Below, in pieces: positions 8,519-64,000 of a DNA stretch of 64,000 bases. The stretch covers positions 864,001 to 928,000 of the forward strand of contig OZ251518.1 of NCBI GenBank assembly GCA_965242965.1, in the 5' to 3' direction. The position numbers were made by a program, and so were the translations under genes. The notes under the pieces are model-generated. The model was not told where the DNA came from and did not search any database. It saw only the letters and a list, made by a program, of their open reading frames with translations. This DNA comes from Candidatus Poribacteria bacterium (GTDB taxonomy: Bacteria; Poribacteria; WGA-4E; WGA-3G). Within the stretch, counting starts at the first letter, position 1. Every line of letters begins with the position of its first letter.

Positions 8519-8652
8519 AGGATAAGCGAAGGGGAGCGCGCATCGGGCCCACCTCTGTAGTTCGGGAGCGGGTGCTCCCGAACGGATCAGGAGCAGGTGC
8601 TCCTGCCCTACAGGGGTGATGCGCTCTGACAGCCAAACGCACTGGGGCTCAC

Positions 8653-9606
8653 CTAATCTTCCAACGTAAACTCAAAAGGAATCTTCACCCTCTTGCTCAC
8701 CGGTTTTCCTGCCTGCATAGCAGGGGTGAAAGTGGATTTGCGCAGTGCGGCAATTGCCGCGTCTTCAAAGCCGAAACCGAGACTAGTAAGGGGCACGATA
8801 TCCTGGGCGATGCCGTTCTCATCAATAGTGGCTTGCAAAAACACGATGCCCTCTTTTCCTGCGCGTTTCGCGGTTTGCGGATAATCCGGCTTCGATTTGA
8901 ATTTGAACTTTGGGTTGGTGCCCTTGGGTCCAATTTTGATATCCCCGACGTTCAAATCCGGCGCGTCATCTACGGCGAGGGGTTCAACCTTGTCAAGCAG
9001 CGAATCCGAGGAACGCTCCGGTGCAAAATCGAGAGGTTTTATCTCTACCTCATCTGCCCCGGTTGGCCGCTCAAGTCCCTTCCCAAAATCAAGAGCCTTC
9101 AGTCCGCTGGTTGTCGACGGTTCGGGGACTTCCACCGCCGCGTCGGGTGCCTGATCGATGGTGAACCCGGTATCTGCTAACGGCAGTGTCGTAGTCGTCT
9201 GGACAGGTTTCCGCGTTATATTCTTTTGCGTATCCTGCCGCTTGGTTTCAAACTGCTGTTTCGGCCGCGCTCGGAATCTGCGTTTCGTCGATGGATTTTC
9301 TTTCACGACAAGCACCCCATCAATTGTCTCTGTCTCGGAGACAATCCGGTCGGTGATGTAGAAAATGCTGATGAAGAACGCTATAATGACATGAAATGCC
9401 ACGGACACCGTGAGTGCAGTGGAGTTGCGGCCCGCGGTTTTCTGCAAAGTCATCGGCGCGCTCATCGGTTGCGCCTGCGCTTGAGAGACAGCACTCCGCT
9501 GCCCCGTATCAAGCGGCATCCGCTTCAACGGTTTTACCCGCTTCGGCTTTTTACGTTCCGCCCGGCGCTGCTGAAGAGTGGCGACAATGTCGGAACTTCT
9601 ACTCAT
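8653..9606 (-). CDS. TonB family energy transducer
   Basis: SVAFH transmembrane motif, low-complexity linker and TonB_C (PDYPQTAKRAGKEGIV..FTPA..GKPV..IPFEF). Confidence 0.88.
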   Translation of the reverse strand: MSRSSDIVATLQQRRAERKKPKRVKPLKRMPLDTGQRSAVSQAQAQPMSAPMTLQKTAGRNSTALTVSVAFHVIIAFFISIFYITDRIVSETETIDGVLVVKENPSTKRRFRARPKQQFETKRQDTQKNITRKPVQTTTTLPLADTGFTIDQAPDAAVEVPEPSTTSGLKALDFGKGLERPTGADEVEIKPLDFAPERSSDSLLDKVEPLAVDDAPDLNVGDIKIGPKGTNPKFKFKSKPDYPQTAKRAGKEGIVFLQATIDENGIAQDIVPLTSLGFGFEDAAIAALRKSTFTPAMQAGKPVSKRVKIPFEFTLED

Positions 9607-9769
9607 CTCTTTTTCCTCCTATAACTCTAACGTGCGATATCGGGAATCTGTGAGTTACAATACTTAACGTTACGATTCGCAAAAAGTTTACGAATGCGCG
9701 ATTTTTCTAACCCTAATGCGAATTATAGCGTATTTGCGTTATTTTTGTCAAATCAACGAAAATCTAGTT

Positions 9770-10140
9770 AGAACGTAGCGCGGGGGCCTGTTCCCCGCAA
9801 GCGTGGTGTAACGTAGCGCGAGGGCCTGTCCCTCGCGATCTCCATCGTCCCGATGTGTTTTTCCCCCTCTGTAGTTTGTGATCGCCTGATCACAAACAGG
9901 TCAAGATCAGGCGATCTTGACCTACAGGTGTGATGCGGTCTGCCCCCAAAACGCATGGCGAGGGACAGGCCCTCGCCCTACGGTGAAGGGGACTGTTTTT
10001 TATCGTAGCGCGGGGGCCTGTCCCCCGCGATGGTGCATGGCGAGGGACAGGCCCTCGCCCTACGGTGAAGTGCCGTTTTTTATCGTAGCGCGGGGGCCCT
10101 CGGATGCCACACGCGCATCCGAGAGGGTTTCCCCCGCGAG
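9770..10140. repeat. composite REP-like hairpin cluster
   Basis: GTAG-headed hairpins of the CCTGT-loop and GATC-GCCT-GATC families, plus a nested CTCGGATGC/GCATCCGAG hairpin. Confidence 0.9.
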
Positions 10141-10156
10141 CCAATATCTCCAAAAT

Positions 10157-12440: not shown

Positions 12441-12690
12441 CAGGGTGCTCATAAATCGCTCAACGTTAACAACGGTGACAGGCCCCGCGCTGCGGTGAAA
12501 AAAACGCCGTCCCTTCACGTAGGGCGAGGGCCTGTCCCTCGCCATGCCAAACGCGCATGCGAGCGGGTTTCCCTCGCCACGCGTTTGGATGTCAGACCGC
12601 ATCACCTCTGTAGTTCAGGAGCACCTGCTCCTGACCCGTTCGGGAGCAGGTGCTCCCGAACTACAGAACTGGGCCCGATGCGCCCCCTCG
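12441..12690. repeat. composite REP-like hairpin cluster
   Basis: Degenerate boundary motif at left, then CCTGT-loop and GGAGC/GCTCC hairpins. Confidence 0.85.
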
Positions 12691-14807: not shown

Positions 14808-15672
14808 TTATTTGAGGGTATTTCATAAATCGTTTTCCCCGGTAGGAGAGACCTCCTGGTCTCGATGCAATAGGGGGCGCGCCGGCAGAAAGCCCCCCCT
14901 TCATTGTAGGGCGAGGGCCTGTCCCTCGCCATCGCTCGCGCACTCCAACACTCGCGGGGGATAGGCAACCGCACTACGAAAAAAACGTCTCTTAGGTCCG
15001 TAGGACCTTAATGTCTATAGCACGTGAAGCTGCGAAGAACGCTAAGGTCCTTTAGGTCCTTAATAGTTTTTGAGATGCCGCGTGCTTTTTTATTAAGGAC
15101 CGAAAGGACCTTGACGTGAACCGGCACGTTTATCTATAGACATGTAGGACCTAAAGGACCTAAAACGCCCCCGCTTGGCGATGGAGATCGCGGGGGACAG
15201 GCCCCCGCGCTACGGTAAAAATAACGCCTGCCTTTCACCGTAGGGCGAGGGCCCTCGCATGCCATACGCGCATGCGAGCGGGTTCCCCTCGCCATCGCTC
15301 GCGCAATCCAACGATCGCGGGGGACAGGCCCCCGCGCTACGATAAAACGCCGCCCCATCACGTAGGGCGAGGGCCTGTCCCTCGCCAGCGTTCGCGCGCT
15401 AGGCTCTGTAGTTCAGGATCACCCGATCCTGACCTGTTTGTGATCAGGCGATCACAAACTACAGACAGGGAAGCACATGACGCTGGCGATCGCGGGGGAC
15501 AGGCCCCCGCGCTACGATAAAAATAACGCCTTCCTTTCATCGTAGGGAGGGCCCTCGGATGCCACACGCGCATGCGAGAGGGTTTCCCTCGCCAATGCTC
15601 GCGCACTCCAACGATCGCGGGGGACAGGCCCCCGCGCTACGGGAAAAATCGAGACCGGGAGGTCTCTCCTAC
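14808..15672. repeat. composite REP-like hairpin cluster including the ~172-bp inverted-repeat element
   Basis: Boundary motif at 14808, multiple GTAG hairpins and the element at 14992-15163. Confidence 0.9.
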
Positions 15673-18002: not shown

Positions 18003-18490
18003 TTAAAATGAGGGTGTTTCCTAACTCGTGAGACCTTGAACGATTCCGTTTCCCCAGTAGGAGAGACCTCCTGGTCTCGATTTCTTTCTTCTTTCTGTCG
18101 TCGTGCCTACCGGGGCCGCGGTGCCTGTAGGTCAAGATCGCCTGATCTTGACCTGTTTGTGATCAGGCGATCACAAACTACAGAGGAAGAAACACACATC
18201 GTGACGTTGGAGATCGCGGGGGACAGGCCCCCGCGCTACGGTTGTCGAGGCCGTCTTCCTTTCATCGTAGGGCTTGGGCCCTCGCATGCCACGCGCGCAT
18301 GCGAGAGGGTTTCCCTCGCCATCGTTCGCGCGCCAGGCTCTGTAGTTCAGGAGCACCTGCTCCTGAACTGTTTGTGATCAGGCGATCACAAACTACAGAG
18401 GAGGGCACAATGTCTTCCGGGAACATCGAGACCAGGAGGTCTCTCCTACCGGGAATGCATCGAGACCCCGAGGGCTCTCCTACCGGCCCC
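18003..18490. repeat. composite REP-like hairpin cluster
   Basis: Boundary motif at 18003, GTAGGAGAGACC..GGTCTC hairpins at both ends and GATC-family doublets. Confidence 0.9.
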
Positions 18491-20814: not shown

Positions 20815-21125
20815 CTTTCCGTAGGGCGAGGGCCTGTCCCTCGCCAGTGCTCGCGTACTCCAACGCTCGCGGGGGACAGGCCCCCGCGCTACGATAAAAA
20901 ACGCCTGTCCCTCACCGTAGGGCGAGGGCCTGTCCCTCGCCGTGCCTAGATCTGCACGGGAAACGGCCTTGGTCTGCGTGCGGTTTTCGCGCGGATCGAA
21001 CGATCGCGGGGGACAGGCCCCCGCGCTACGGAAAAAAACGTCTCTTGAACGATCGCGGGGGAAACCCGCTCGGATGCGCGTGTGGCATCCGAGGGGCCCC
21101 GCGCTACGATAAAAAACGTCTCTTG
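20815..21125. repeat. composite REP-like hairpin cluster
   Basis: Alternating inverted CCTGT-loop hairpins. Confidence 0.9.
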
Positions 21126-22089: not shown

Positions 22090-22560
22090 GTGGGAAAAAA
22101 ACGCCGCCCCTTCCCGTAGGGCGAGGGCCTGTCCCTCGCCATCGTTTTGCTGCCAGACCTCCTCCCCTCTGTAGGTCAGGATCGCCTGATCCTGACCCGT
22201 TTGTGATCAGGCGATCACAAACTACAGAGGAGCGAAACGTCCCCCGTCACCGTAGGGCGAGGGCCTGTCCCTCGCCATGCCTCGGTCTATCGAACGATCG
22301 CGGGGGACAGGCCCCCGCGCTACGGTTGTGGAGGCTGCCTTCCCGTTACCGTAGGGCGAGGGCCTGTCCCTCGCCATCGTTTTGCTGCCAGACCGCATCA
22401 CCTCTGTAGGTCAGGAGCGCCTGCTCCTGACCTGTTTGTGATCAGGCGATCACAAACTACAGAAGGGGAAATACACATCGGGACGATCGCGGGGGCCTGT
22501 CCCCCGCGCTACGATACTCGCACGCGCCAACGATCGCGGGGGCCTGTCCCCCGCGCTACG
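22090..22560. repeat. composite REP-like hairpin cluster
   Basis: CCTGT-loop hairpins and two GTCAGG../TTTGTGATC doublets. Confidence 0.9.
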
Positions 22561-23915: not shown

Positions 23916-23960
23916 AAGATGGTTCTCCGTGTTGGGACGATAAAAAACGTCTTCTTTCAT

Positions 23961-24650
23961 CGTAGGGCGAGGGCCTGTCCCTCGCCATGCCTCGATCTAC
24001 CGAACGCTCGCGGGGGACAGGCCCCCGCGCTACGGGTGTCAAGACCGCCTTCCCCTCACCGTAGGGCGAGGGCCTGTCCCTCGCCATGCTGCGGTCCACC
24101 GGAAACTCGCGGGGGACAGGCCCCCGCGCTACGGGAAAAATAACGGTTTTTTGAGCTCAATAAAAACACCCCTTCATCGTAGGGCGAGGGCCTGTCCCTC
24201 GCCATGCCTCGGGGCACCGAACGATCGCGGGGGACAGGCCCCCGCGCTACGGGAAAATAACGGTTTTTGAACTCATAAAAACGTCACCCCTCATCGTAGG
24301 GCGAGGGCCTGTCCCTCGCCATGCTGCAGTCTACCGAACGCTCGCGGGGGACAGGCCCCCGCGCTACGGGAAAAATAACGGGTCTTGAGCTCAATAAAAA
24401 CGTCACCCGTCACCGTAGGGCGAGGGCCTGTCCCTCGCCATGCTCCGGTCTACCGAACGATCGCGGAGGACAGGCCCCCGCGCTACGATAAAATAACGCC
24501 TTCGCGCGTTCCAACGATCACGGGGGACAGGCCCCCGCGCTACGGTTGTCGAGGCCGCCTCCCCTCACCGTAGGGCGAGGGCCTGTCCCTCGCCATGCTC
24601 CGGTCTATCGAACGATCGCTGGAGAATCGAGACCAGGAGGTCTCTCCTAC
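23961..24650. repeat. tandem array of REP doublets (REPIN/BIME-like)
   Basis: CGTAGGGCGAGGGCCTGTCCCTCGCCAT starts at 23961, 24060, 24178, 24295, 24414 and 24569. The first five are each followed ~20 bp later by an inverted CGCGGGGGACAGGCCCCCGCGCTACG-type unit. Confidence 0.92.
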
Positions 24651-27658: not shown

Positions 27659-27691
27659 TTTTTGGGTTCCTTTGGAGGTTTATTTTTAATT

Positions 27692-27739: not shown

Positions 27740-28570
27740 TTTGAAGGATCGCGGGGGACAGGCCCCCGCGCTACGGTAAAATAACGGTTTTTGAGCTCGA
27801 TAAAAACGCCCTTTCATCGTAGGGCGAGGGCCTGTCCCTCGCCATGCCTCGCGCGAGGGAAAATACGTCTTTTCCTCATTTGAAGGATCACGGGGGACAG
27901 GCCCCCGCGCTACGGTGAAAAAAAACGCCATCCTTCCTCGTAGGGCGAGGGCCTGTCCCTCGCCATCGTTCACGCTGCCAGACCCCTTCCCCTCTGTAGG
28001 TCAAGAGCGCCTGCTCTTGACCCGTTTGTGATTAGGCGATCACAAACTACAGAAGGGAAACTGTCCCTCGCCAGTGCTCGCGCAATCCAACGATCGCGGG
28101 GGACAGGCCCCCGCGCTACGGTGAAAACAAACGCCTTCCGTTATCGTAGGGCGAGGGCCTGTCCCTCGCCATCGTTCACGCTGCCAGACCCCTTCCCCCC
28201 TCTGTAGGTCAAGAGCGCCTGCTCTTGACCCGTTTGTGATCAGGCGATCACAAACTACAGAAGGGGAACACGCATCGTGCCGATAGAGATCGCGGGGGAC
28301 AGGCCCCCGCGCTACGGTGAAAATAACGCCTGCCTTAAAAAACGCCTGTCCCTCGCCATCGTTTTGCTGCCAGACCCCTTCCCCCCTCTGTAGGTCAAGA
28401 GCGCCTGCTCTTGACCTGTTTGTGATCAGGCGATCACAAACTACAGAAGGGAACTGTCCCTCGCTAGTGTTCGCGTACTCCAACGATCGCGGGGGACAGG
28501 CCCCCGCGCTACGGTGAACAATGGGGCTTTGAGAGATCGCGGGGGACAGGCCCCCGCGCTACGATAAAAA
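27740..28570. repeat. composite REP-like hairpin cluster
   Basis: Three copies of the GTAGGTCAAGAGCGCCTGCTCTTGAC / GTTTGTGATCAGGCGATCACAAACTAC doublet, interleaved with CCTGT-loop hairpins. Confidence 0.9.
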
Positions 28571-29846: not shown

Positions 29847-30287
29847 TTAAATGAGGGTGTTTCATAATTCCGTTTCGGATTTATCCCGCCTTGGAGGGTG
29901 GGATAACACCAGAAGGCATCGGGCCCACCTCTGTAGTTCGGGATCGCCCGATCCCGAACGGGTCAGGAGCAGGCGATCCTGACCTACAGGGGTGATGCGC
30001 TCTGCCAGCCAAACGCATGGCGAGGGACAGGCCCTCGCCCTACGGTAACCCGGGGCGTTTTTTTCTGTCGATCCGTTCGGGATCAGGCGATCCCGAACTA
30101 CGGTCTTTTCCAAGGTCTGGGCACGGCGAGGGAAACCCGCTCGGATGCGCGTGTGGCATGCGAGGGCCCAAGCCCTACGCGAAGGGGTGGCGTTTTTTTA
30201 TCGCAGCGCGGGGCCCTCGGATGCCACACGCGCATCCGAGAGGGTTTCACCGCGACGTTGAGCGAGTTATGAAACACCCTCAGTTAA
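29847..30287. mobile_element. inverted-repeat-bounded, REP-filled non-autonomous cassette (MITE-like)
   Basis: Left end TTAAaTGAGGGTGTTTCATAA (29847-29867), right end TTATGAAACACCCTCAgTTAA (30267-30287). The interior consists mainly of GTAG hairpins. Confidence 0.55.
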
Positions 30288-30378
30288 ATGCATCGAGACC
30301 AGGAGGTCTCTCCTACTCCCCATCTGTAGTTTGTGATCGCCTGATCACAAACGATGCATCGAGACCAGGAGGGCTCTC

Positions 30379-31023
30379 CTACCGAGTGAATCGTTGATTA
30401 ATTGTTTTCACCAAACCTGCGTCGATTCGGCAACGTTCCGCCGCAATAATCGCCTGAATCTGAGCCACAGCCTGTTTTATCCCACCGTCATGGTTAGTAA
30501 CGCAATAGTCGTAGTGCTGAATTTGGGCGATTTCGGATGCCGCGATGTCCAAGCGTTGCATCAGTTCCGATTCCGATTCCGTTTTCCTGCCGCGGAGTCG
30601 TTTCTCCAAATCGGCAAACGATGCAGGGACGATGAAGATGAGTAGACTCCTAACAGTTCCATGTCCTATCCGTTGGCGCGCTTGTAGCGCGCCTTGGACT
30701 TCGATCTCCAAAACCGAGGCTTTCCCTGCGTTTTGTCCGAGCGCGATTTCAGACATGAGTGTGCCGTAGAAATTGCCGCCGTATTCTGCCCATTCGAGGA
30801 ACCCTTCCTGCTGAATCAGTTCCTCAAATTCGGATTTTGACAGAAAGTGATAGTCCACGCCGTCCACTTCGCGTGGGCGCGGCGTGCGCGTCGTTGCGGA
30901 AACGGCGAGTCTCAACGTCTCATCTGCTTTGCAGAGTGCATTGACGACGGTGCTTTTACCGGAGCCCGAAGGACCCGAAATAACGACGACTAAATTGGGT
31001 TGATAGAAATCCTTATGTGCCAC
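30379..31023 (-). CDS. gmk: guanylate kinase
   Basis: SGPSGSGKS, VSATTRTPRPREVDGVDYHF, FLEWA..YGT and LEKRLRGR. Confidence 0.97.
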   Translation of the reverse strand: MAHKDFYQPNLVVVISGPSGSGKSTVVNALCKADETLRLAVSATTRTPRPREVDGVDYHFLSKSEFEELIQQEGFLEWAEYGGNFYGTLMSEIALGQNAGKASVLEIEVQGALQARQRIGHGTVRSLLIFIVPASFADLEKRLRGRKTESESELMQRLDIAASEIAQIQHYDYCVTNHDGGIKQAVAQIQAIIAAERCRIDAGLVKTINQRFTR

Positions 31024-31649: not shown

Positions 31650-32303
31650 GTTTCATCGTAGGGCGGTAGGAAAACCTGTCCCTCGCGATGCATTTTGGTG
31701 TCAGACCGCATCACTCCTGTAGGTCAAGATCGCCTGATCTTGACCCGTTCGGGAGCAGGCACTCCCGAACTACAGAGGTGGGCGATGCCTTCCGGTAGGA
31801 GAGACCTCCTGGTCTCGATGTTCCCGTAGCGCGGGGGCCTGTCCCCCGCGATCTCCATCGTTACGATGTGTGTCCCCCCTGTAGTTTGTGATCGCCTGAT
31901 CACAAACAGGTCAGGATCGCTTGGCAAAGATGCCAGAGCTTCAGACGATCCTGCCCTACAGGGCCCGGCGCGTGAACGATAGCGAGGGACAGGCCCTCGC
32001 CCTACGGTGAAGGATGGCGTTATTTTTTTCGTATCGCGGGGGCCTGTCCCCCGCGATCTTCATCGTTACGATGTGTGTTTCCTCTCTGTAGTTTGTGATC
32101 GCCTGATCACAAACGGGTCAGGATCAGGCGATCCTGACCTACAGAGCCTGGCGCGTGAACGATGGCGAGGGACAGGCCCTCGCCCTACGATGAACGGGGG
32201 GGTTTCTGCCGCCGCGGCCCCGGTAGGCGAGCCGCCCTATTGCATCGAGACCGGGAGGTCTCTCCTACACGAACACATCGAAATATGAAACACCCTGAAT
32301 TAA
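31650..32303. repeat. composite REP-like hairpin cluster
   Basis: Multiple GTAG hairpin families; boundary motif at 32285-32303 faces right. Confidence 0.9.
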
Positions 32304-33184: not shown

Positions 33185-33785
33185 GAAACCTCTTTAGGAG
33201 AACCCTCCCGGTCTTGATGCGCCCCGTATCGGGACAAGGATGTCCCGCCTACCGGAAGGCCTCGGGCGCACCTCTGTAGTTCGGGATCACCCGCTCCCGA
33301 ACAGTTCAGGAGCAGGCACTCTTGACCTACAGAAGAAGAGAAGGGGGGGGATCTGGTGCAATAACGATGGCAAAGGACAGGCCCTCGCCCTACGGTAAGG
33401 GGAGACGGCCCGGACAACCGTAGCGCGGGGGCCTGTCCCCCGCCATCGTTCGATCGCGCGGACGATTCGCGCCACCACATTTGTAGTTCGGGAGCACCCG
33501 CTCCCGAACGGTTCAAGAGCAGGTGCTCTTGAACTACAGTGGGGAGGGAGTCTGGCGCGCGGAACGATGGCGAGGGGAACCCGCTCGGATGCGCGTGTGG
33601 CATCCGAGGGCCCTCGCCCTACGGTAAAGGGATAGCGTTCTGGATACCGTAGCGCGGGGGACAGGCCCCCGCGCTACGGGAACATCGAGACTAGGAGGTC
33701 TCTCCTACCGAGGACATCGTTCGCATCGAGACCGGGACGGCGCGCCGACAGGGAAAAATCGAGACCGGGAGGTCTCTCCTACCAA
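33185..33785. repeat. composite REP-like hairpin cluster
   Basis: At least four hairpin families intermixed. Confidence 0.9.
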
Positions 33786-40944: not shown

Positions 40945-41340
40945 AATTCCACCTTCCTGGTTTGACTAAAGATTGATGCACGCCGTCCGGTCCGAGTGCC
41001 GCCTGCTGTCGCGACGTTCACGAACCAACGTATCTAGTCTACCCTAAAAACCTCAAATTTGCAAACAAAAAACGCCGAGTGTCATCAACAATAGGTGCTA
41101 ACCGTATATATGTTAACACATATTCAAGCGAATGTCAAATTATTTTTTTCGCCGCATCGTGCCTGGTTCTGTAGTTCGGGAGCGCCTGCTCCCGAACGGG
41201 TCAGGATCAGGCGATCCTGACCTACAGGTGTGGCGGCGGCGTGCTGGCCGCCGCGCGTGTTGGGTTGCGCGAGGCATGGCGAGGGACAGGCCCTCGCCCT
41301 ACGGTGAAGAGGTGGCGTTTTTTTCACACCCTGACATTTT

Positions 41341-42126: not shown

Positions 42127-42415
42127 TTGAGCCTCCTTAAAATTGTGTCGGTTTGTATTTTTAGCGTTTCGCGTTGATTAATCGAACGCTCGCGAGGGAC
42201 AGGCCCTCGCACTACGGTAAAGTAAAATCCGTTCGGGAGCAGGCGCTCCCGAACTACAGAGGGGACAGGTCCTCGCGCTACGGTAACGTTAAAATTGCGC
42301 GGTTGCATCGAGACCGGGAGGTCTCTCCTACCAGGCCCTCGCGCTACGGTAACGTTAACATTCCGTTGCAAACATTATAGCATTAAACCATTAAAAATGG
42401 AAATGCCATTTTTTC

Positions 42416-45500: not shown

Positions 45501-45899
45501 CTCGGGACACCTGGGTATCGGGACGGCGGTCCGCTGCCGGTTGTGTTATCGCACTTCCAGTCGGTTCGGACAGATGCGGGGGTTGTGATTCGTTGGACAA
45601 CCGAGTCGTCGTTGGAGAATGCGGGGTTTAACCTGCTGCGCGGGGAGAGCCGCCCAGGTCCGTTTACGCAAATCAACCGTGGTTTGATTGCCGGTGCCGG
45701 CACGACAGGCGAGCGTCGGACGTATACGTTCACGGATAGTGCTGCGAAACCGCGCGTGAGTTATTATTATCGTTTGGAGGAGGTTTCGTTTGGTGGTGTG
45801 CGTCAGGTGCTTGCGACGACGCGCGTAAGAGGGTCCGTGATGGCGAGTGGTAAACTTACTATGCGGTGGAGTCAGCTTAAGTCTCCCTCAGGCCCGTAG
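42570..45899 (+). CDS. secreted internalin-like LRR + Ig-like + FN3 + lamin-tail-domain protein
   Basis: IPD..L..AV cap, 22-aa LRRs (LANLTNLEHLDL.NN.I.DI), SGDEQ.G Ig domain, FN3 (YEVRYR..LIPGTAYE), two ISEL/FNEL..WLEL LTD units and PLPVVLSHF. Confidence 0.85.
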   Translation: MNFYITLKRAIVYAPFTAARAIGTAYSRFNPPLSTSVNLAKVSILLALLVISSACCWLPVASAQSPTVNIPDTVLAAAVGTQLFNSGIIMNLGDTITRAHMSNIWFQALVVNAPADPTKKIKDLTGLEFAPNLVTLSIEAHDIRSLEPIKDLTTLKYLRFTGSENLGDISPIRGLTNLEELQLGNTGISDITPLANLTNLEHLDLKNNEIHDISALANLTKLTFLNLWNNAPRDQPELKGNNQVRDIGPLANLTALTHLYLDGNQISDLTPLANLTELILLEIQDNQVRDISPITGIAHRLRTLFLDGNPLSYRSIYTHLPTIRSRIIPSRINFVTFETPSGDATRIPGGLVSISGDEQTGMSGAPLAAPFVVETRDSEGALFAGVPLTFTITEGGGTLNPVPTETDDDGRAEATLTPVTTLGRHTVAVTVIHEGTTLRTAFTADVLPVALAAPTLEDALPTTLQVSWPAPAYPVEGYEVRYRVKDSEAWTDATHEGTGTNITLTDLIPGTAYEAQIRAQTTAGPSPWSPSVSGMTAYVLLTTRELAPSPVASDRLVFNELRNANDDKHDWLEVKNISDADIPLAGWEISIVASAGGAADQDVDIITFPAYTLPAGEVLLIVNTSPSQTDLASGVNIATGTGKKGAKHRYLVSGKLKLPQTSYLLLLRSVTDKNGTAEALEDVAGNYFRETGDLLFGDEGTQVWPLQDTERPSPADAASLAVGEAWARISTEQRGYFAAAWSRSGYQAGLGYRPNAVTEPTSVGTPGYANTAVTGEAPSGRVSISELMFSTKSGRRTVPQWLELYNNSMTEAVKLEGWRLEVEYLTGKPARRHRFDAVSLTPLTVLPNQTVLLVTWRAETSGHFPEGKLYNLYFEHPTAFNQRERRNDVLNAAGFSVRLLDAGGTLVDSVGNLDGVARTKDAPTWDVPSGTTADGARVSLLRKYEDSAPLPGTEADSWVSASEVKLAVSTYYGWESDLGTPGYRDGGPLPVVLSHFQSVRTDAGVVIRWTTESSLENAGFNLLRGESRPGPFTQINRGLIAGAGTTGERRTYTFTDSAAKPRVSYYYRLEEVSFGGVRQVLATTRVRGSVMASGKLTMRWSQLKSPSGP

Positions 45900-46170
45900 G
45901 GCGAGGGCCTGTCCCTCGCCATGCACCGATCGCCAGGCTCTGTAAGTCAGGATCGCCAGATCCTGACCCGTTTGTGATCAGGCGATCACAAACTACAGAG
46001 GGGAAACACACATCGTGACGACAGAGATCGCGGGGGACAGGCCCCCGCGCTACGATAAAACGCCCCTTCGCTAACCAACGATCGCGGGGGACAGGCCCCC
46101 GCACTACGATAAAAAACGCCTCTTCGCTAATCCAACGATCGCGGGGGACAGGCCCCCGCGCTACGGTAAC
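45895..46170. repeat. composite REP-like hairpin cluster
   Basis: Starts at the stop codon of the LRR gene; three tandem GATCGCGGGGGACAGGCCCCCGC units. Confidence 0.9.
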
Positions 46171-48414: not shown

Positions 48415-48925
48415 TGAGGGTGTCTCATATTTCGATGCGTTTCGGTAGGAGAGACCTCGGGTCTCGATTTCTTCGGATAGGCGCGCCCTCCTGGTCTCAA
48501 TGTGTTTCGTATCGGGACAAGGATGTCCCGCCTACCGGAAGGCATCGGGCCCATCTCTGTAGTTCGGGAGCGCCTGCTCCCGAACGGGTCAGGAGCAGGC
48601 GCTCCTGAACTACAGAGGAGATGCGCTCTGCCCGCCAAACGCATGGCGAGGGACAGGCCCTCGCCCTACGGTGAAAGGGGGCTTTCCTCCACCCGTACCG
48701 CGGGGGCCTGTCCCCCGCGATCGTTGGGTTGCGCGTGCATGAACGCTGGCGAGGGACAGGCCCTCGCCCTACGGTAACGCACGCCGTTTTTTATCGTAGC
48801 GCGGGGGCCCTCGGATGCCATACGCGCATCCGAGAGGGTTTCCCCCGCGATCGTTGGAGTGCGCGGACGATATTGAGACCGGGAGGTCTCTCCTACGGGG
48901 ACGCACATTCACAAAATGCGCGGGT
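48415..48925. repeat. composite REP-like hairpin cluster
   Basis: Boundary motif at 48415 followed by several hairpin families. Confidence 0.9.
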
Positions 48926-48954: not shown

Positions 48955-50970
48955 ATGGAAAAACAGCACGGAAATCCAAAAATCGGCGTTGATACCGGTG
49001 GCACCTTCACAGACATCGTTATGTTCGTCGATGGAACGCTCATGACGCATAAAGTCCTCTCCACGCCGCTGAACCCGGCGCACGCCGTGATACGAGGTGT
49101 CCACGACATCGTGGAAAGGCTTGCGCCGCGCCAAAATGCCGATATTGTGCACGGTTCGACGGTTGCCACCAACGCGCTTCTTGAACGGAGAGGTGCCAAA
49201 ATCGCATTGGTTACCACGAAAGGGTTTGAAGATGTCCTAGAAATTGGGAGGCAGGCGCGCCCAAGCCTTTATGATTTCTGGGTGGAACGCCCGGCTCCCC
49301 TCGTGCCAGCCGAAAGACGATTCGGAGTTGCCGAAAGGACACTCCACACCGGTGTCACCGAAACCCCGATTGACACGGAGCAGTTAGACACGCTCGCAAA
49401 ACATCTCGCGACGTTATCACTCGATGCGATTGCTATCTGCTTCCTCTTCTCTTACGTGAATCCGCAGAACGAACAGATTGCCGCCGAACACCTGGCCACG
49501 CTCAACATTCCGATTTCGTGCTCTCACGAAATTTTGCCGGAATACCGCGAGTATGAACGCTTCAGCACCACAGTGGCGAATGCTTATATCCGGCCCACTT
49601 TGGAACGCCACCTCTCCACGCTGAGCGAATCTCAGCGGTTTCCAAAGTCTTTCCGTTTGATGCTGTCCAATGGGGGCAGTATTTCGGCGAGGAATTTCCA
49701 CGCTGCGGGTATCCGGACTGTGCTTTCTGGACCCGCGGGTGGTGTTATCGGCGCGTATCACGTCGCGAAAACCGCCGGTTATCAGAAAATCATCACGTTT
49801 GATATGGGCGGCACCTCCACCGATGTCAGTCTGTGCGATAACGGCATATCCATGACCACCGAGAGCACTATCAGCGGGCTCCCCATCAAAGTGCCGCTCA
49901 TTGATATCCACACCGTCGGCGCGGGCGGCGGCTCCATCGCGAGTGTGGATGCCGGCGGTGCCCTGCGCGTCGGACCGGAAAGTGCAGGCGCAGACCCGGG
50001 CCCCATCTGTTATGGAAAGGGAGAAGAGATTACCGTTACCGATGCGAACCTCTTTTTAGGTAGGATTGAACCGAATCGGTTTTTAGGCGGGAAGATGCAA
50101 CTCGCATCCGACGCGACCCGGGAGCATCTGGAAAAATTCAGTGTTGGACTTGGAATGTCGCCGGTGGAAGCCGCCGATGGCATTCTGAAAGTGGCGAACG
50201 CGACGATGGAGCGCGCCATCAAAGTCATCTCTGTTGAGCGCGGTTTTGACACGCGCGATTTCACGCTGGTTTCCTTCGGCGGCGCGGGCGGTTTGCACGC
50301 CGCATTCTTGGCAGAAAACCTCGGCATTCAAACAGTGCTTATTCCACCGAACGGCGGCTTACTCTCCGCCTACGGCATGCTCTTCGCCGATGTCGTCAAA
50401 GATTATTCGCAAACGGTGCTGTGGACGTTCCAAAGCACGGGTGACACTCCAACGGAACAACTCACTGCCGGTTTTACGACACTCCTCGCCAGGGCGGAGA
50501 ACGAAATGCAAACGGAGGGGTTCGCGCCGCATCAACTCAACATCGCGTGTTCACTTGACATGCGATATGAGGGACAATCTTATGAGTTGAATATCCCTTA
50601 CCTTGAGACAGATTTCATCGCCAAATTCCACGCCGCCCACGAACAGCGGTTCAGTTATGCGCGTCCCGAAGCAGCAGTAGAAGTCGTCAACCTCCGTCTC
50701 ACTGCCATCGGCGAAACCGAAAAGCCGGCGATTCTTCCTGAACGCCTTACCGATTCCGAGGTTTCTCCAAGTGCCCGCGTCGCGACAATGCCTGTCGTTT
50801 TTGAAGGGAAAGCGCGCCCAACCGATTTCTATCGCCGCGAGGCATTGTGTCCGGGTAACGAGATTGAAGGACCGGCTATCATCACAGAATTCAGTGCGAC
50901 TACCGTCGTGCCGCCTGATTTCCGCGCCACCGTCGATGCCTATCGGAATCTCATTTTGCGGCATCAGTAG
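48955..50970 (+). CDS. hydantoinase/oxoprolinase family subunit A
   Basis: IGVDTGGTFTD, HGSTVATNALL, SGPAGG, DMGGTSTD, GAGGGS and GPESAGADPGPICYG. Confidence 0.93.
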   Translation: MEKQHGNPKIGVDTGGTFTDIVMFVDGTLMTHKVLSTPLNPAHAVIRGVHDIVERLAPRQNADIVHGSTVATNALLERRGAKIALVTTKGFEDVLEIGRQARPSLYDFWVERPAPLVPAERRFGVAERTLHTGVTETPIDTEQLDTLAKHLATLSLDAIAICFLFSYVNPQNEQIAAEHLATLNIPISCSHEILPEYREYERFSTTVANAYIRPTLERHLSTLSESQRFPKSFRLMLSNGGSISARNFHAAGIRTVLSGPAGGVIGAYHVAKTAGYQKIITFDMGGTSTDVSLCDNGISMTTESTISGLPIKVPLIDIHTVGAGGGSIASVDAGGALRVGPESAGADPGPICYGKGEEITVTDANLFLGRIEPNRFLGGKMQLASDATREHLEKFSVGLGMSPVEAADGILKVANATMERAIKVISVERGFDTRDFTLVSFGGAGGLHAAFLAENLGIQTVLIPPNGGLLSAYGMLFADVVKDYSQTVLWTFQSTGDTPTEQLTAGFTTLLARAENEMQTEGFAPHQLNIACSLDMRYEGQSYELNIPYLETDFIAKFHAAHEQRFSYARPEAAVEVVNLRLTAIGETEKPAILPERLTDSEVSPSARVATMPVVFEGKARPTDFYRREALCPGNEIEGPAIITEFSATTVVPPDFRATVDAYRNLILRHQ

Positions 50971-51019
50971 GAGAGACCTCCCGGTCTCGATGCGCGCCCA
51001 GTAGGAGAGACCTCCCGGT

Positions 51020-51245
51020 CTCGATTGCCCCCGTATCGGGACAAGGATATCCCTCCTACCCACACCCGTTCGGGACAAGGATGTCCCGCCTACCCAAACG
51101 CATATCGGGACAAGGATGTCCCGCCTACCCAAACGCGATGCCCCCAGTAGGAGAGACCTCCTGGTCTCGATGCAATTCCCGTATCGGGACAAGGATGTCC
51201 CTCCTACCCACACGCATTCGGGACAGGGATGTCCCTCCTACCCAC
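51020..51245. repeat. tandem CGGGACAAGGATGTCCC(G/T)CCTAC hairpin family
   Basis: Five copies here, with single copies near 33226 and 48509. On the minus strand each reads GTAG + GGGAC/GTCCC stem. Confidence 0.85.
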
Positions 51246-52229: not shown

Positions 52230-52824
52230 TTACGGTGACAAAACGCTGCCCCTTCACGTAGGGCGAGGGCCTGTCCCTCGCCATCGCTCGCACTACGGAA
52301 AAAACGTCTCTGGTTCTCTTCAGGTCCGTAGGACCTGCATGTCTATAGCACGTGAGGCTGCGAAGAACGCTAAGGTCCTTTAGGTCCTTAATAGATTTTG
52401 CCAGGGCCGCGCGTATTTTTTATTAAGGACCTAAAGGACCTTGAAAACGGGACGACACGTGTTTCTATAGACATTAAGGACCTAAAGGACCTAAAACGAT
52501 GCGTAGGAAAAAAAAACGGCGTGCGTTACCGTAGGGCGGGGGCCTGTCCCTCGCCATCGTCCGTGCACTCCAACGCTCGCGGGGGACAGGCCCCCGCGAG
52601 CTCCATCGTCATGAGGTGTGCTTTCCCCTCTGTAGTTTGTGATCGCCTGATCACAAACGGGTCGGGATCAGGCGATCCCGAACTACAGGGTCTGGCGCGA
52701 GAACGCTGGCGAGGGACAGGCCCTCGCCCTACGATGAAAGGGGGGATTTCTGCCGCCCTATTGCATCGAGACCGGGAGGTCTCTCCTACTGGGAAGACAT
52801 TGAGATATGAAACACCCGCAATTA
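52230..52824. repeat. composite REP-like hairpin cluster including the ~175-bp inverted-repeat element
   Basis: Element at 52320-52494; boundary motif at 52805-52824. Confidence 0.9.
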
Positions 52825-55434: not shown

Positions 55435-56210
55435 GAGCGTGCCTATTCCGTGCCTATTCCGTAGGGCGAGGGCCTGTCCCTCGCCATCGCTCGCACAATC
55501 CAACAATCGCGGGGGACAGGCCCCCGCGCTACGGTGAAAAAAACGGTTTTTATTACCGTCGCGGAGGACAGGCCCCCGCGCTACGATGGAAAAACGCCAC
55601 CCTTCACCGTAGGGCGAGGGCCTGTCCCTCGCCAGGCCGGGTCACAAAGACAATGTTAATTATCGTAGGGCGAGGGCCTGTCCCTCGCCATGCCTAATGT
55701 CCCCAAACCCCGTTTTGACTGTTTTTCCGAAACGGAATTATTTCGGTTTCCGCGGCGATCGCGGCACGACGAGGGACAGGCCCTCGTCCTACGGTTAAAA
55801 GCAGCCATCTCGGTTTCCCCGGCGCGCGGCACGACGAGGGACAGGCCCTCGTCCTACGGTTAATTGAGGGTGTTTCATAAATCCGCATCGGGCCCACCTC
55901 TGTAGTTCGGGAGCGCCCGCTCCCGAACGGGTCAGGATCAGGCGATCCTGACCTACAGGGGGTGATGCGGTCTGACAGCAAAAACGCACGACGAGGGACA
56001 GGCCCTCGTCCTACGGTGAAGGGCAGCGGTAGGAGAGACCTCCCGGTCTCGATTTTCGCGGCGATCGCGGCACGACGAGGGACAGGCCCTCGTCCTACGG
56101 TTAATTGAGGGTGTTTCATAAATCCGCATCGGGCCCACCTCTGTAGTTCGGGAGCGCCCGCTCCCGAACGGGTCAAGATCAGGCGATCTTGACCTACGAA
56201 GGGCCGCGCC
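55435..56210. repeat. composite REP-like hairpin cluster with an internal ~130-bp direct duplication
   Basis: GACGAGGG/CCCTCGTC variant four times; ~55826-55957 is repeated at ~56067-56198. Confidence 0.9.
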
Positions 56211-57514: not shown

Positions 57515-58075
57515 TGCCTGGAGCAGGATTTGAAGCAGGATTTTCAAGATTTCGCACGATTTCGCAAGATTATAGGTTTTGATGGGTCGAATAGCTCGTG
57601 GCGTGCCAAAACCGCGCCGGCGCATCGGAGACCTAATCCTGGTAAATCTTGTATAATCGTGAGAATCCTGCTCCGGATTTGCAAGATTAGGGGTTTTTAT
57701 TCCGCCGAAACGTCTCTTTAGGTCTGTAAGACCTTAATGTCTATAGCGCGCAGCGACGCGAAGATGGCTAAGGTCTGTAAGACCTTAATGTGTTTGTAGT
57801 TATCCAAATCGCGCCGCCTTCACCGTAGTGCGAGGGCCTGTCCCTCGCAAGGCGGATAGCCAGAGCCGCCCCCTTCCACCGTAGCGCGAGGAGAAGGCGC
57901 GCCTACTGCATCGAGACCGGGAGGTCTCTCCTACCGCTCCATTCCACCGTAGTGCGAGGGCCTGTCCCTCGCAATGCAGATGGCCAGAGCCGCCCCCATT
58001 CCACCGTAGCGCGGTGGGAAAACCTGTCCCTCGCAATGCGATGAGTTCACGGGGGACAGGCCCCCGTGCTGTGTT
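57515..58075. repeat. composite repeat cluster (GATTT-periodic repeat, partial 175-bp element, REP hairpins)
   Basis: CAGGATTT/AATCCTG inverted unit at 57517-57677, AGGTCTGTAAGACCT twice and GTAGTGCGAGGG variant hairpins. Confidence 0.85.
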
Positions 58076-59132: not shown

Positions 59133-59764
59133 TGTCTGGAGCAGGATTTCCAAGATTTCCAGGATTTGCAGGATTAGAGGGCTCTTGGCGAGGCAAATCA
59201 GCTTTCCTACCGTAGCGCGGGGGCCTGTCCCCCGCGATCTACCAACCTATGCGGAAAACGTCCGCAACCCAGAGACTACGGATGTTTGCTGCTAAGATCG
59301 GCGCATGGCGAGGGACAGGCCCTCGCACTACGTACCATGCGGCGATTGCCTATTTCTTACCGTAGCGCGGGGGCCTGTCCCCCGCGAGCCTCTTGTTGTC
59401 TGGAGCAGGATTTCCAAGATTTACACGATTTACACGATTATCTCCCGCGCAACGAGCATTCCTTTTGCAATGGATGCCTCTTAGGTCCTTTAGGACCTAC
59501 ATGTCTATAGAAAAACAGACATGCCCCCGTTTTCAAGGTCTGCTAGGACCTTAATGAAACGAGACATACGGCACAACTACACATTAAGGTCCTACGGACC
59601 TTAGGTTCATCGTGTCGCGAGGAGCTATAGACATTAAGGTCTTACAGACCTTAGGCATAGCGAGGGACAGGCCTTCGCCCTACGTGAAAGGGCGGCGTTT
59701 TTTCACCGAATCGCAGGTGCCTGTCACCGCGACGTTGAGCGAATTATGAAACACTCGCAATTAA
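59133..59764. repeat. composite repeat cluster
   Basis: GATTT-periodic units, REP hairpins, 174-bp element at 59481-59654 and boundary motif at 59744-59764. Confidence 0.85.
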
Positions 59765-60591: not shown

Positions 60592-61103
60592 ACGAGGTCC
60601 GGAGGCGGCATCGCGGCTGTTGTCTGAATCAGGATTTGCAGGATCATGTCTACAGTAAAGACATTTCTGCAGGAAGAAGGACGATTAGGAAAACCTGATT
60701 GTCTTGACAGGCGTAACCCTGCAGAGATGACCATTTATAGGATTTGCAGGATTAGGGGTTTTGTTGAAGCAAACTTCCTTCCCTCGTAGAGCAGGAGCCT
60801 GTCTCCGGTGCCCGTAGTCACCTTGCGAGGGACAGGCACTCTCGCTACGAGGCTGAGGGACGGTTTCAGCAACGCAATTTTCTCTCGCGTAGTTTCGGGC
60901 TCTCCCGATTTCAGTCAAGTCAGGCTCAGGAAGTCTTGACTTATAAATGAATTTGATATAACCGCCCACGAACTAATAGGAAAAGTGCAACGATTTTCAT
61001 GATAATCCTCCGTGATAGTCAGCAGGAATCCGCACCTGCCCCTATCAGATGTGTCATGCAGGGACATCCGTGTGTCCCCGCATGACTGACTAGAGCAACT
61101 TCG

Positions 61104-62071: not shown

Positions 62072-62680
62072 TTAGACAATCTCATCAATCGCTTCACAAA
62101 CGTCTTCAATGAAATCGACCGCCTGCTCCGAATCAGCAGCAGAAATCGGCCAACGAATCGCAGGCTGACCTGGGGAGCTCGGGGCCCAGTCTGCCTCATG
62201 CGCAATCTGATTTCGGCGATCGACGATGGCAAGGAGCCGATTTTTTACCTCTGGAACGGTTGAATTAAGTTTCGCAGCGACAGATGGCCACAACTCACAT
62301 CCGGAAAAGAGCCGCACTGCATCGGCTATCTTGTCGGGGCGTTGGAATGCCTGATATCCATGCTTTTCGCGAATCTCCTCCTCAAGCCACTCATTACGTC
62401 CCGGTCGGACAATTGCTTTTATCACTGCATCCATGGCGACTTGGAAGCGCGAGAAGGCGTTCGTCTGCGGACGTTTCCCATCGTATCCCTCTAACATACC
62501 GATGCGTGTGATTTCGTGGATGTAGAGATCCATCGCGCTGACGGCCAAAACGATTTGCGAGCGGAGGAGATCTGTCAAATCCACAGCAGGGGTTGTCAAT
62601 TGCCCGAAGGCGTGATAGAGACCGCCGAGGGCGCGAACCCGTTCCATATTTTCTCTGAATTGCTTGATAGGGTTATTCAT
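62072..62680 (-). CDS. HEPN domain protein (RiboL-PSP/MAE_28990-like)
   Basis: DLLRSQIVLAVSAMDLYIHE helix and RRNQIAH (RxxxxH) motif. Confidence 0.8.
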   Translation of the reverse strand: MNNPIKQFRENMERVRALGGLYHAFGQLTTPAVDLTDLLRSQIVLAVSAMDLYIHEITRIGMLEGYDGKRPQTNAFSRFQVAMDAVIKAIVRPGRNEWLEEEIREKHGYQAFQRPDKIADAVRLFSGCELWPSVAAKLNSTVPEVKNRLLAIVDRRNQIAHEADWAPSSPGQPAIRWPISAADSEQAVDFIEDVCEAIDEIV

Positions 62681-63779
62681 CTTTTGTTAGTGCGATGATC
62701 CGCTCCGCGCCTGCAGCGAAGAGTTCGCGAAACTTCAGCATCGCCTCCTTGGTATTTTCGAGAGCGTTTCCAGTTCGTCCGATTTGCGCATCAGTCAAAT
62801 CGAAAACCGGGGCTTTATGCTCTTGTGAAAGCGCGATGAGACTGTTGAAGTCTGACATCTGAAGGAGCGGCCGTGCTATGACCAGATTCGGAAATAGAAG
62901 CGGTAATAAGAGAGGGATAGGTTCTTCGGCATCTGAGGCAATCTGGCTTGCCTCTTCATATCGTTCTACCGGAAGTAGCATGTCGTTTTCCCTTAACGCA
63001 GGGATGAGTTTTGTCTCAATTCCATCTCTGATTTTGTCAATCCACCTTTGAAAGGCGGCAGCAGGAATCCCCTCCCTGACGCGATAATTCTGGATTATCG
63101 TTCCGAGAAACTTGGGCGACTTATCAGGGAACGGATAAATCGCATCTTGTAAGAGAGATGAGGCTTTCACGTGCTTTGCCCACCCTGACCACTTCGGCAG
63201 GAAAGAGGCGAGGCTCTCCGTTGCCATGGCAGAGAAGTAGTCCGGAAACATTGGCACGATGAAATAGTCGCATGTCATGAGCAGATTCTGGTTCATCGGT
63301 CCCACGCTTGGGCTCATGTCAACCAAGATAAAATCGGCATCATATTCTTCCGCGGTTTGCTGGAAAAGATAGTGAAGAGAGCCCGGCAAATTCTTGAGGG
63401 TGACGAGAGAGCCAGACAGTTCTTGGGCAATGCCCAAAGTGACTTCGTATTCGGCGAGCCTGATGTGCCCTGGCAGCAGATACATGTTCGGTTGAGATTT
63501 AACCTGCGCGCAGACTACCGGTTTAATGACCACTGGCCGCGATTCAAAAGCGGGGGAAAGTCCATCGCGGATATCCCGAACCTCTTCGGACTCGTAAATC
63601 AATTCAAAATCTCTGGCACCCCTGAAACCGAGCACCATGCCGGTGAGGTTACACTGCGGATCGCAGTCAACGATGATAACCTTCTTTCCTTTGTTGGCGA
63701 GCATCCAGCCGAGGTTGAAGGTAGTCGTCGTCTTGCCGACTCCGCCTTTATGGTTGAAAAGCGCGATCTGTTTTGCCAT
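62673..63779 (-). CDS. ParA/Soj-like ATPase (conflict-associated type)
   Basis: FNHKGGVGKTT deviant Walker A, VDCDPQCNLT, ILVDMSP and FIVPMFPDYFS. Confidence 0.88.
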   Translation of the reverse strand: MAKQIALFNHKGGVGKTTTTFNLGWMLANKGKKVIIVDCDPQCNLTGMVLGFRGARDFELIYESEEVRDIRDGLSPAFESRPVVIKPVVCAQVKSQPNMYLLPGHIRLAEYEVTLGIAQELSGSLVTLKNLPGSLHYLFQQTAEEYDADFILVDMSPSVGPMNQNLLMTCDYFIVPMFPDYFSAMATESLASFLPKWSGWAKHVKASSLLQDAIYPFPDKSPKFLGTIIQNYRVREGIPAAAFQRWIDKIRDGIETKLIPALRENDMLLPVERYEEASQIASDAEEPIPLLLPLLFPNLVIARPLLQMSDFNSLIALSQEHKAPVFDLTDAQIGRTGNALENTKEAMLKFRELFAAGAERIIALTKDE

Positions 63780-63812
63780 TGCAATTCTCCGATTGAGAGT
63801 TGTTTTGTGTTA

Positions 63813-63841
63813 ATTTTATCATGAATTGTTGTTGATGTCAA
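63813..63841 (-). promoter_or_regulatory. sigma70-type promoter of the ParA-HEPN operon
   Basis: Minus strand TTGACA-17 bp-TAAAAT with TG extension. Confidence 0.7.
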
Positions 63842-63855
63842 GGGAAAATTGTGAA

Positions 63856-64000
63856 TTAATAGAGGGCGTTTCATATCTTGATGGCTTCCCCGTAGGAGAG
63901 ACCTCCTGGTCTCGATGCAATACCGTAGGAGAGTCCTCCTTGTCTCAATATCGTCCGCGCAACCCAACGATCGCGGGGGACAGGCCCCGCGCTACGAAAA
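63856..64000. repeat. composite REP-like hairpin cluster (runs off window)
   Basis: Boundary motif at 63856, then GTAGGAGAGACC hairpins and a CCTGT-loop hairpin. Confidence 0.85.

Follow-up and report, generated by a model that had tools for sequence, protein, structure and literature searches.

A stretch of 64,000 nt from the genome of a Candidatus Poribacteria bacterium (contig OZ251518.1, 864,001..928,000, corresponding to G000:C1:864001-928000; this whole stretch is referred to as the window, and positions are given relative to its start) contains many clusters of short palindromes headed by the tetranucleotide GTAG. These palindromes are very probably GTAG-type repetitive extragenic palindromes (REPs), organized in doublets and arrays like those of bacterial interspersed mosaic elements (BIMEs) and REP doublets forming hairpins (REPINs), which serve as non-autonomous partners of REP-associated tyrosine transposases (RAYTs, also TnpA-REP) of the HUH type and have greatly expanded in this Poribacteria lineage. 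Three structural systems occur: a long-hairpin doublet composed of the types A and B, twin hairpins of type D, about half of which are nested between A and B, and type C, often together with type F. The clusters are lineage-specific gains between conserved housekeeping genes, and they grew in two ways, through insertions beside or within REPs already present and through local duplication of composite units in tandem. A minor part of the REPs is carried in a shell resembling a MITE (a transposable element of miniature size with inverted repeats), with a target duplication of 7-8 bp. The source genome (G000, 5.70 Mb in two contigs) was compared with two further assemblies of the genus, G001 (86% complete) and G002.

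The 12-mer heads of types A and B, allowing one mismatch, were found 46 and 45 times in the window, compared with shuffle expectations of 0.24 and 0.42, and none of 100 shuffles gave counts as high. Family patterns with up to two substitutions identified 155 REPs (AB 78, D 48, C 22, F 7) in 26 clusters. About 25 clusters had been announced by an earlier reading of the letters without database searches (the sequence-only reading), and all five consensus forms quoted there were present as written; the F consensus was read as GTAG-GC-GGGACA-TCCT(T)-TGTCCC. The clusters had been said to begin at position 8535, and one REP cluster (905-926) precedes that coordinate. Their claimed share of one sixth of the window is too large for the spans from first to last REP (7,978 nt, 12.5%) and holds for the whole REP-bearing intergenic regions (11,375 nt, 17.8%, using a crude longest-ORF gene map; ORF, open reading frame). 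With 134 REPs in each of its two 64-kb bins, the window lies above the genome mean of 94 but is not extreme, as the maximum was 187. The genes of the window are ordinary housekeeping genes, and a search of the whole window against Rfam at gathering thresholds gave no match. In short-read Logan contigs from four runs of three studies the REP-bearing bins had about 50 to 300 times the summed depth of the gene bins; the repeats are thus multi-copy in independent data.

Genome-wide, 7,821 perfect hairpins consisting of GTAG, a stem of 6-11 nt, a loop of 3-8 nt and the complementary stem were counted, with A, B, C and D as top classes, and all of the chromosome's most frequent 14-mers were pieces of these hairpins. 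The unpaired 5' GTAG tag followed by a palindrome, which characterizes a REP, was seen directly in the window sequence. The loops of all four types contained CCY; those of D began with G or A, those of C with T and those of A and B with C.

Types A and B do not constitute separate families: each provides one arm of the same long-hairpin doublet type. Among 809 outward-headed AB pairs in the genome, 720 combined A with B, while only 13 were A-A and 17 B-B. A-B junctions were nearly as often inward-headed (733) as outward-headed (769), resulting in alternating arrays. The outward-headed gaps had a modal length of 24 nt (248 of 769), followed by 12 nt (107) and 72 nt (57); the inward-headed gaps were about 25 nt long, and tandem arrays had periods of 99 and 118 nt. 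On folding, the A-B unit formed a single long imperfect hairpin with symmetric mismatches (-29.3 kcal/mol, z -5.7), and none of 200 shuffles was as stable. The A-B doublets therefore pair as inverted REPs of a REPIN do, which the D doublets do not, and the A-B arrays show the two alternating REP types, linkers and tandem repeats of a BIME. Conservation per position was 90-99% in the arms and only about 40-90% in the 24-nt spacers, with 601 distinct spacers among the 720 doublets. The doublets with a 72-nt spacer (57 copies genome-wide) contained a conserved inner hairpin followed by a T-run, which resembles an intrinsic terminator module.

The D hairpins formed tight inverted twins, 654 of 692 pairs having a gap of exactly 5 nt. 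The inverted doublets described in the sequence-only reading, A with B and D with D', were confirmed. The two arms of a D doublet carry different stems and folded into two separate hairpins. About half of the D pairs were flanked by A and B (386 and 323 adjacent bigrams). One subtype, consisting of A, a spacer and a D doublet, was present in 77 copies with a conserved spacer, which indicates that composite cassettes were copied as units. Type C frequently capped the clusters, and 395 direct C-C pairs and 208 C-F pairs were found. Doublets nested and recurred in tandem, and the units inside the arrays differed by point substitutions. The mosaics are explained by D doublets nested in A...B, by tandem duplication of composite units and, for a minority, by the MITE-like shell; this nesting and tandem pattern is the known BIME pattern (PMC3333891; PMC3733652). 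GTAG-type REPs in REPIN- and BIME-like doublets and arrays were hence borne out by grammar and folding, but the description as distinct families shuffled combinatorially was overstated, because A and B are arms of one doublet and C pairs with F.

The whole genome contained 8,379 REPs (AB 4,484, C 1,751, D 1,756, F 388) in 1,944 clusters, which held 4.3 REPs on average and at most 19. The hairpins covered 198,914 nt (3.5% of the genome) and the cluster spans 449,776 nt (7.9%). By a crude longest-ORF map, 7,386 of 8,377 REP centres (88%) were located outside ORFs. REPs occupied 1,577 of 3,573 intergenic regions; the median length of these regions was 429 nt, compared with 71 nt for the empty ones. 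Convergent gaps were occupied in 53%, divergent gaps in 45% and tandem gaps in 42% of cases, which is a weak preference. In tandem gaps no orientation bias relative to the genes was found (same/opposite strand: A 624/510, B 698/652, C 468/432, D 526/538, F 114/100), and no replichore pattern was visible when the chromosome was divided into twenty bins.

Searches of the whole genome with Pfam Y1_Tnp and NCBIfam NF047646 identified one intact RAYT, P0001, a protein of 154 aa encoded at C1:3147502-3147963. It scored 120.6 bits with NF047646 (cut-off 80) and 47.3 bits with Pfam PF01797 Y1_Tnp (cut-off 23). In an alignment of 14 relatives the residues of the HxH and YxxxNP motifs (H66, H68, Y126, Y128, N130 and P131) were in invariant columns. 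D hairpins surround the gene on either side; within 2 kb of it 19 D REPs were counted, compared with 1.2 expected. A RAYT outside the window, which the sequence-only reading had considered possible, was therefore present with one of the hairpin families beside it. The suggestion of several RAYTs encoded elsewhere was not borne out in that form, as the genome has exactly one, flanked by D only, and only the sister species G002 yielded candidate cognates for C/F and A/B. The only other Y1 match was an IS200/IS605 tnpA gene broken by two TGA stops, which adjoins an intact tnpB-like ORF of 408 aa (G000:C1:3123891-3127127). Among the genomes of 41 relatives 22 had a RAYT above the cut-off, and at 15 of 20 RAYT loci examined a GTAG hairpin family was located beside the gene. 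With the 14-sequence RAYT alignment as query, none of 80 metagenome loci outside the genus had a RAYT flanked by A/B, C, D or F hairpins, even with three mismatches allowed, and the best RAYT match among these loci was 51% identical.

Comparison with the sister species showed that hairpin families and RAYT genes are distributed differently. Exact matches of A/B numbered 3,670 in G000, 700 in G001 and 378 in G002; those of C 1,043, 11 and 148; and those of D 1,297, 43 and 0. The P0001-type RAYT is absent from G002, and the RAYT locus of G001 probably fell into a break between contigs. That genome has a RAYT flanked by C and F hairpins (127.6 bits) and a second Y1 gene of 179 aa with A/B-type hairpin flanks, which is 26% identical to P0001 and scored 29.8 bits with Pfam Y1_Tnp (cut-off 23) but only 57.4 bits with NF047646, under the cut-off of 80. 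The combination of a RAYT with the same REPs at its flanks, a REPtron, was thus found for D in G000; candidates for it were seen for C/F and A/B only in G002, the A/B-flanked gene being RAYT-like. The A/B-flanked Y1 gene of G002 occupies the slot of P0001 (G000:C1:3143678-3149380), the flanking genes being 80% and 78% identical; the Y1 genes that the two species have at this slot are not orthologous and differ in their flanking REP families. Since G000 has the most A/B and C copies yet neither candidate cognate, the situation is the reverse of the published correlation of REP abundance with the cognate RAYT (PMC2817692; PMC3686654; bioRxiv 10.1101/2021.07.10.451892). The A/B pattern was found in none of 38 genomes of other genera, and C was found once outside the genus, in one other genus.

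The gaps between orthologous genes were compared as well. A 19.5-kb region of G002 syntenic to window positions 14-37 kb contained 3 REPs, compared with roughly 90 in G000, and its gaps were short and empty. In 167 collinear gaps of G000 and G002 (400 kb of G002) 590 REPs were counted in G000 and 27 in G002, and the gap DNA amounted to 120.9 kb and 65.5 kb, respectively. REPs were present only in G000 in 74 of these gaps, only in G002 in 14, in both in 28 and in neither in 51. This alignment of orthologous gaps, a check proposed with the sequence-only reading, showed empty sites in a related species and hence lineage-specific gain. As the families are restricted to this genus, it is more likely that the gaps were ancestrally empty. 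Where doublets were shared, those of G000 had been enlarged from within by insertions and by duplication of a composite unit of about 240 nt; one old doublet common to both species was decayed in both. A 4.6-kb segment of G000 (23933-28605) is missing from the syntenic gap of G002, which measures 144 nt. It carries a gene for an Eco57I-like restriction-modification methylase of 1,003 aa (24647-27658) with REP arrays on both sides. In the G001 neighbourhood next to coaBC a CRISPR array was found instead, and a comparison of REPs with G000 was not possible there.

Insertion footprints were searched for in the 80-nt flanks of the 1,944 clusters. Exact direct repeats of at least 12 nt occurred at 93 clusters, compared with 6 in shuffled pairings, and repeats of at least 20 nt at 28, compared with none. 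In 56 of the 93 cases the repeated sequence was present exactly twice in the genome. For isolated clusters, defined as one or two REPs on the same strand, a duplication was called at a local alignment score of 11 or more; this applied to 54 of 235 C clusters (control 1), 20 of 185 AB clusters (5), 7 of 33 D clusters (0) and 2 of 11 F clusters (0). Most C duplications were 24-33 nt long. In 19 of the 54 cases they ended exactly at GTAG, with the other junction 2-49 nt past the hairpin. The bases preceding GTAG at the abutting junctions varied (AT, TT, CC, CG, AC), as judged by eye among the rows listed, and at least 11 C-only clusters among those listed were flanked by perfect duplications of 21 to 33 nt that are unique in the genome. 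The corresponding empty site was checked in three cases. For two C insertions with duplications of 31 and 32 nt the target was single-copy and free of C in both G001 and G002, with a different hairpin downstream in the relatives' gap at one of the two sites; in the third case (G000 3,558,098) the G002 gap was not alignable. The 400-kb comparison of G000 and G002 yielded three further duplications (18, about 30 and about 30 nt), and a C copy of G002 also had a duplication of about 31 nt. In the window only the cluster at 59212-59385 has a long flanking repeat. At G000:C1:4618174 the 32-nt duplication around a C REP extends over the ribosome-binding site and initial codons of the gene downstream, so that the gene start is preserved in the second copy.

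The perfect duplications around C argue for recent movement of this type in G000, where P0001 is the only RAYT. In the mechanism that we propose, the RAYT would nick single-stranded donor DNA exactly 5' of GTAG and become linked to it by a 5'-phosphotyrosine; this chemistry and a model of BIME amplification are known for TnpA-REP (PMC3333891). The GTAG end would then be joined to a free 3'-OH at a replication fork. Copying might continue for a variable distance beyond the hairpin and return to the original template about 30 nt upstream, by which the target would be duplicated. Arrays could subsequently enlarge by slippage or by RAYT-driven BIME amplification. As a whole, the following proposition is tentative and rather doubtful: that the footprint of a precisely joined GTAG end, a ragged other end and about 30 duplicated bp reflects HUH transfer to a nascent 3' end at the fork with a template switch, that a single fast-evolving RAYT serves at least two families (D and C) after having replaced a different RAYT-like gene in its slot, and that the resulting REP load is one of the densest described.

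Several observations weigh against the interpretation of these REPs as partners of a RAYT. The largest families, AB with 4,484 and C with 1,751 REPs, have no cognate RAYT in G000, and within 5 kb of P0001 no AB and no C REP was present, although 7.9 and 3.1 were expected. In A/B and C copies G000 exceeds G002 by a factor of 7 to 10, although candidate cognate genes are present in G002. No duplication was detected at 181 of 235 isolated C clusters, leaving only 54 with one, and long target duplications are unexpected from chemistry of the IS200/IS605 type, as those elements make no sizeable target duplication (PMC2817692). PMC2817692 mentions target duplication only for IS200/IS605, and no description of REP target duplications was found in the passages searched of PMC3733652, PMC2817692 and PMC3116915. 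The intergenic statistics, furthermore, rest on the crude longest-ORF caller. The Logan contigs break at repeats, no listed contig spans a cluster, and many apparent joints were cross-matches from repeat to repeat.

The missing cognates could be accounted for by one promiscuous RAYT: P0001 may mobilize C/F and perhaps A/B in addition to D by recognizing the 5' GTAG, the perfect stem and the CCY loop, a reading with a real though less than even chance. The recent activity of C without a C/F-flanked RAYT, with perfect duplications, two of them at targets that are single-copy in G001 and G002, is in line with it. The G000 site syntenic to the C/F RAYT of G002 contained only D and AB REPs and no RAYT, and tblastn revealed no second copy of P0001 in G000. 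P0001 is located on a long branch and is 55% identical to the C/F RAYT of G002. The arms of D already tolerate very different stems, CCY is common to all four loops, and high numbers of B-type arms and D occur only in G000 and G001. For a group-3 TnpA-REP, GTAG was needed for cleavage and a perfect stem was required, while the stem sequence was less important and could be changed without drastic consequences (PMC8266576). According to the same source, the enzyme of Stenotrophomonas maltophilia depended critically on the first base of the loop, yet this base differs among the families studied here. Moreover, enrichment around P0001 was observed for D only, and other RAYTs may have been lost very recently.

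Such a loss is central to a further explanation, which is about as probable as the promiscuous RAYT: RAYTs specific for A/B and C/F drove bursts of expansion and were then lost (C/F) or replaced in place (A/B), so that the remaining REPs are orphan populations which decay or are kept by host benefit or gene conversion. G002 keeps a C/F-flanked RAYT, and its A/B-flanked Y1 gene is in the slot of P0001 with both flanks syntenic. Loss of RAYTs following over-expansion has been described as a scenario (bioRxiv 10.1101/2021.07.10.451892; PMC3686654). The variety of the A-B spacers is as expected without recent copying of whole doublets, and the old doublet that G000 and G002 have in common has decayed in each of them. 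However, shrinkage and decay are expected after RAYT loss (bioRxiv 10.1101/2021.07.10.451892), whereas AB is the least decayed family, with 3,809 of 4,484 copies exact and arms far better conserved than spacers. The perfect long duplications around C also argue for very recent insertion.

The MITE-like shell offers a different vehicle. Its inverted end, GAGGGTGTTTCATA, was present 1,025 times in the genome and formed 301 pairs of less than 1.5 kb, and in 64 of these pairs an 8-nt sequence was duplicated exactly at the flanks; at least one REP was present in 292 of 296 short pairs. Clean filled and empty cases showed target duplications of 7-8 nt. It is nevertheless improbable that the clusters spread mainly by means of these ends, in the manner of cargo of a DDE-type MITE, rather than by a RAYT. 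Only 1,331 of 8,377 REPs (16%) were inside recognizable end pairs, the eleven ends in the window comprised one clean pair (29853-30281, duplication AGTTAAAT) and ten solitary ends, and isolated REPs with long flanking duplications had no such ends. No autonomous partner was found among 26 end pairs of 900-4,000 nt, which bracket ordinary ORFs and contain no transposase ORF. The MITE-like shell is therefore a minor vehicle for REPs. That the clusters are an assembly artefact of a repeat-rich metagenome-assembled genome, as the breaking of Logan contigs at repeats might suggest, is hardly credible, since these families were also present in two separate assemblies of the genus, the depth of REP bins is high, the genome is in two contigs and array units differ by point substitutions.

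The REPs very probably served by a RAYT can be placed among known systems. E. coli has about 600 REPs covering about 1% of its genome, and S. maltophilia has over 1,600 (PMC3333891); 37-427 perfect copies per repeat (PMC2817692) and up to 'over a thousand' REPs per class (PMC3686654) have been reported. Coexisting GTAG families, dimers in head-to-head, tail-to-tail and head-to-tail orientation and tandem clusters are known (PMC3733652), as are conserved REPs with variable linkers in BIME-2 of E. coli (PMC3333891). The Poribacteria elements resemble the E. coli BIME-2/REPtron (yafM) in having GTAG hairpins, two REP types (y and z2 there, A and B here) in inverted order, short linkers, tandem repetition, conserved arms with variable linkers and a single Y1/HUH gene flanked by REPs (PMC3333891). 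Unlike those of E. coli, the stems are perfect and lack a bulge, the copy number is about 8,400 instead of about 600, and the hairpins cover 3.5% instead of about 1% of the genome. Three structural systems are also opposed to one RAYT, which is flanked by only one of them.

Perfect GC-rich palindromes, short loops, several families, head-to-head dimers and an approximately 10-fold difference in abundance between relatives are shared with the SMAG elements and group-3 REPtrons of S. maltophilia and with the REPIN-RAYT systems of Pseudomonas fluorescens (PMC2817692; PMC3686654; PMC3733652). In those species, as described, each family normally has its own flanked RAYT, whereas the two largest families here have none, and the published counts given above compare with 7,821 perfect GTAG hairpins here. 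With IS200/IS605 elements (IS608, ISDra2) the system shares HUH/Y1 chemistry, sub-terminal hairpins, a guide tetranucleotide 5' of the hairpin and coupling to the replication fork (PMC8266576; PMC3333891). It differs from IS608 and ISDra2, whose insertion produces no target duplication of notable size (PMC2817692), in the duplications, mostly of 24-33 nt, carried by 54 of 235 isolated C clusters. Among the papers listed in literature searches, none linked Poribacteria to REP, RAYT, REPIN, MITE or repeat terms.

The repeats thus belong to a known kind of element; their state here is extreme and mismatched internally, and they provide a mechanistic clue that is open to testing. Mechanisms of REP dissemination have been called 'poorly understood' (PMC8266576). 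Hundreds of lineage-specific insertions are available here together with the empty sites of sister species, and the footprints look fresh, with precise GTAG junctions and perfect duplications of about 30 nt. The mismatch of hairpin families and RAYT genes between sister species, including the swap of RAYT type at one locus, constitutes a natural experiment. REP clusters also account for most of the size difference between G000 and G002, as their spans amount to about 0.45 Mb and the difference to about 0.5 Mb; this bears on the inflation of a host-associated bacterial genome by non-coding DNA.

Within the window, the first REP is a single C at 905..926 (minus strand), located in the 5' part of ORF 759-1568, which encodes a GNAT domain (residues 171-257). 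A D twin-hairpin doublet at 8557..8611 is followed by a cluster of seven REPs at 9775..10063 (B, B, D doublet, A, B, A) and by A with a D doublet at 12519..12664. At 14814..14929 a MITE-like end (14814-14827) precedes C and A REPs. The next cluster, 15190..15672, consists of eight REPs (B, B, A, D doublet, B, B, C), with 51-nt modules lacking GTAG just upstream (15046-15160). A composite island at 18010..18463 comprises a MITE-like end, C, D doublet, B, D doublet and C; it has TTAAAAT on both sides, and the orthologous G002 gap is without the island. Between 10157 and 20799 four minus-strand genes for proteins of 734-768 aa are arranged in tandem with a REP cluster between each; two of the products are CarboxypepD_reg/TonB-dependent-receptor-like, one is DUF5916/CBM9 and one had no Pfam match.

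Two A-B doublets at 20821..21029 are missing from the orthologous G002 gap. In the cluster at 22116..22460, which has eight REPs, D doublets are nested after A hairpins; the orthologous gap of G002 is 68 nt long. The region 23962..24650 is a tandem A-B array resembling BIME-2, with periods of 118 nt (3.8 copies) and 99 nt (1.8 copies) and a C REP at its end. An array of 15 REPs at 27751..28562 repeats the composite A + [D doublet] + B, with half-A remnants after the D doublets. The complete MITE-like shell at 29853..30281 has the inverted ends and the 8-nt flanking duplication given above and encloses about five of the seven REPs (D doublet, A, D, C, D, C) of the cluster at 29933..30382. At about 21030-21110 and 30090-30230 the loop of a B- or A-type hairpin is split by a small hairpin (stem CTCGGATGC, loop GCGTGTG), and in G002 a different hairpin was found inserted within a B loop. 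Eleven REPs at 31719..32297, with a terminal MITE-like end (32284-32297), are missing from the orthologous G002 gap of 58 nt. The cluster at 33230..33782 has ten REPs (F, D doublet, A, B, D doublet, B, C, C).

In the right part of the window a D doublet with A (41171..41302) and an A-variant with D and C (42192..42331) precede a cluster at 45896..46164, in which A and a D doublet are followed by three B-type REPs with a tandem period of 57 nt. A MITE-like end (48416-48429) and seven REPs (F, D doublet, A, B, A, C) form the cluster at 48416..48896. The C/F array at 50967..51241 has a tandem period of 34-35 nt and about six copies. Six REPs at 52258..52819 include internal 51-nt modules lacking GTAG (52374-52491) and a MITE-like end (52806-52819). 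The cluster at 55461..56197 contains 14 REPs; its outer A-type pair is orthologous to a G002 doublet, and the inner part holds the duplicated unit [A-variant + MITE-like end + D doublet]. An A-variant, C and a second A-variant are present at 57825..57972, and the old decayed doublet common to G002 is located at the right end of the same gap (about 58,000-58,050). The cluster of B, A-variant and B at 59212..59385 is flanked by an imperfect direct duplication of 45 nt (alignment score 33). A single A REP with a MITE-like end (59745-59758) is found at 59660..59758, and a single Ba-type REP at 60825..60848 (minus strand). The last cluster (63862..63995), at the window edge, consists of a MITE-like end, two C REPs and a B-type REP.

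A repeat lacking GTAG, with the core GGACCTAAAGGACC and a spacing of about 51 nt, was located in or beside REP clusters (15046-15160, 52374-52491 and 59484-59497). Its core matched the window seven times, compared with 0.21 expected matches, and about 550 copies were present genome-wide. A tandem duplication of 305 nt (2.0 copies, 91% identical) at 5799-6409 extends across the junction of ORFs 5108-6109 and 6106-6408. At 62072-63779 adjacent genes encode a RiboL-PSP HEPN protein and an AAA_31/ParA-like ATPase, and the pair looks like a small module of the defence or toxin type.

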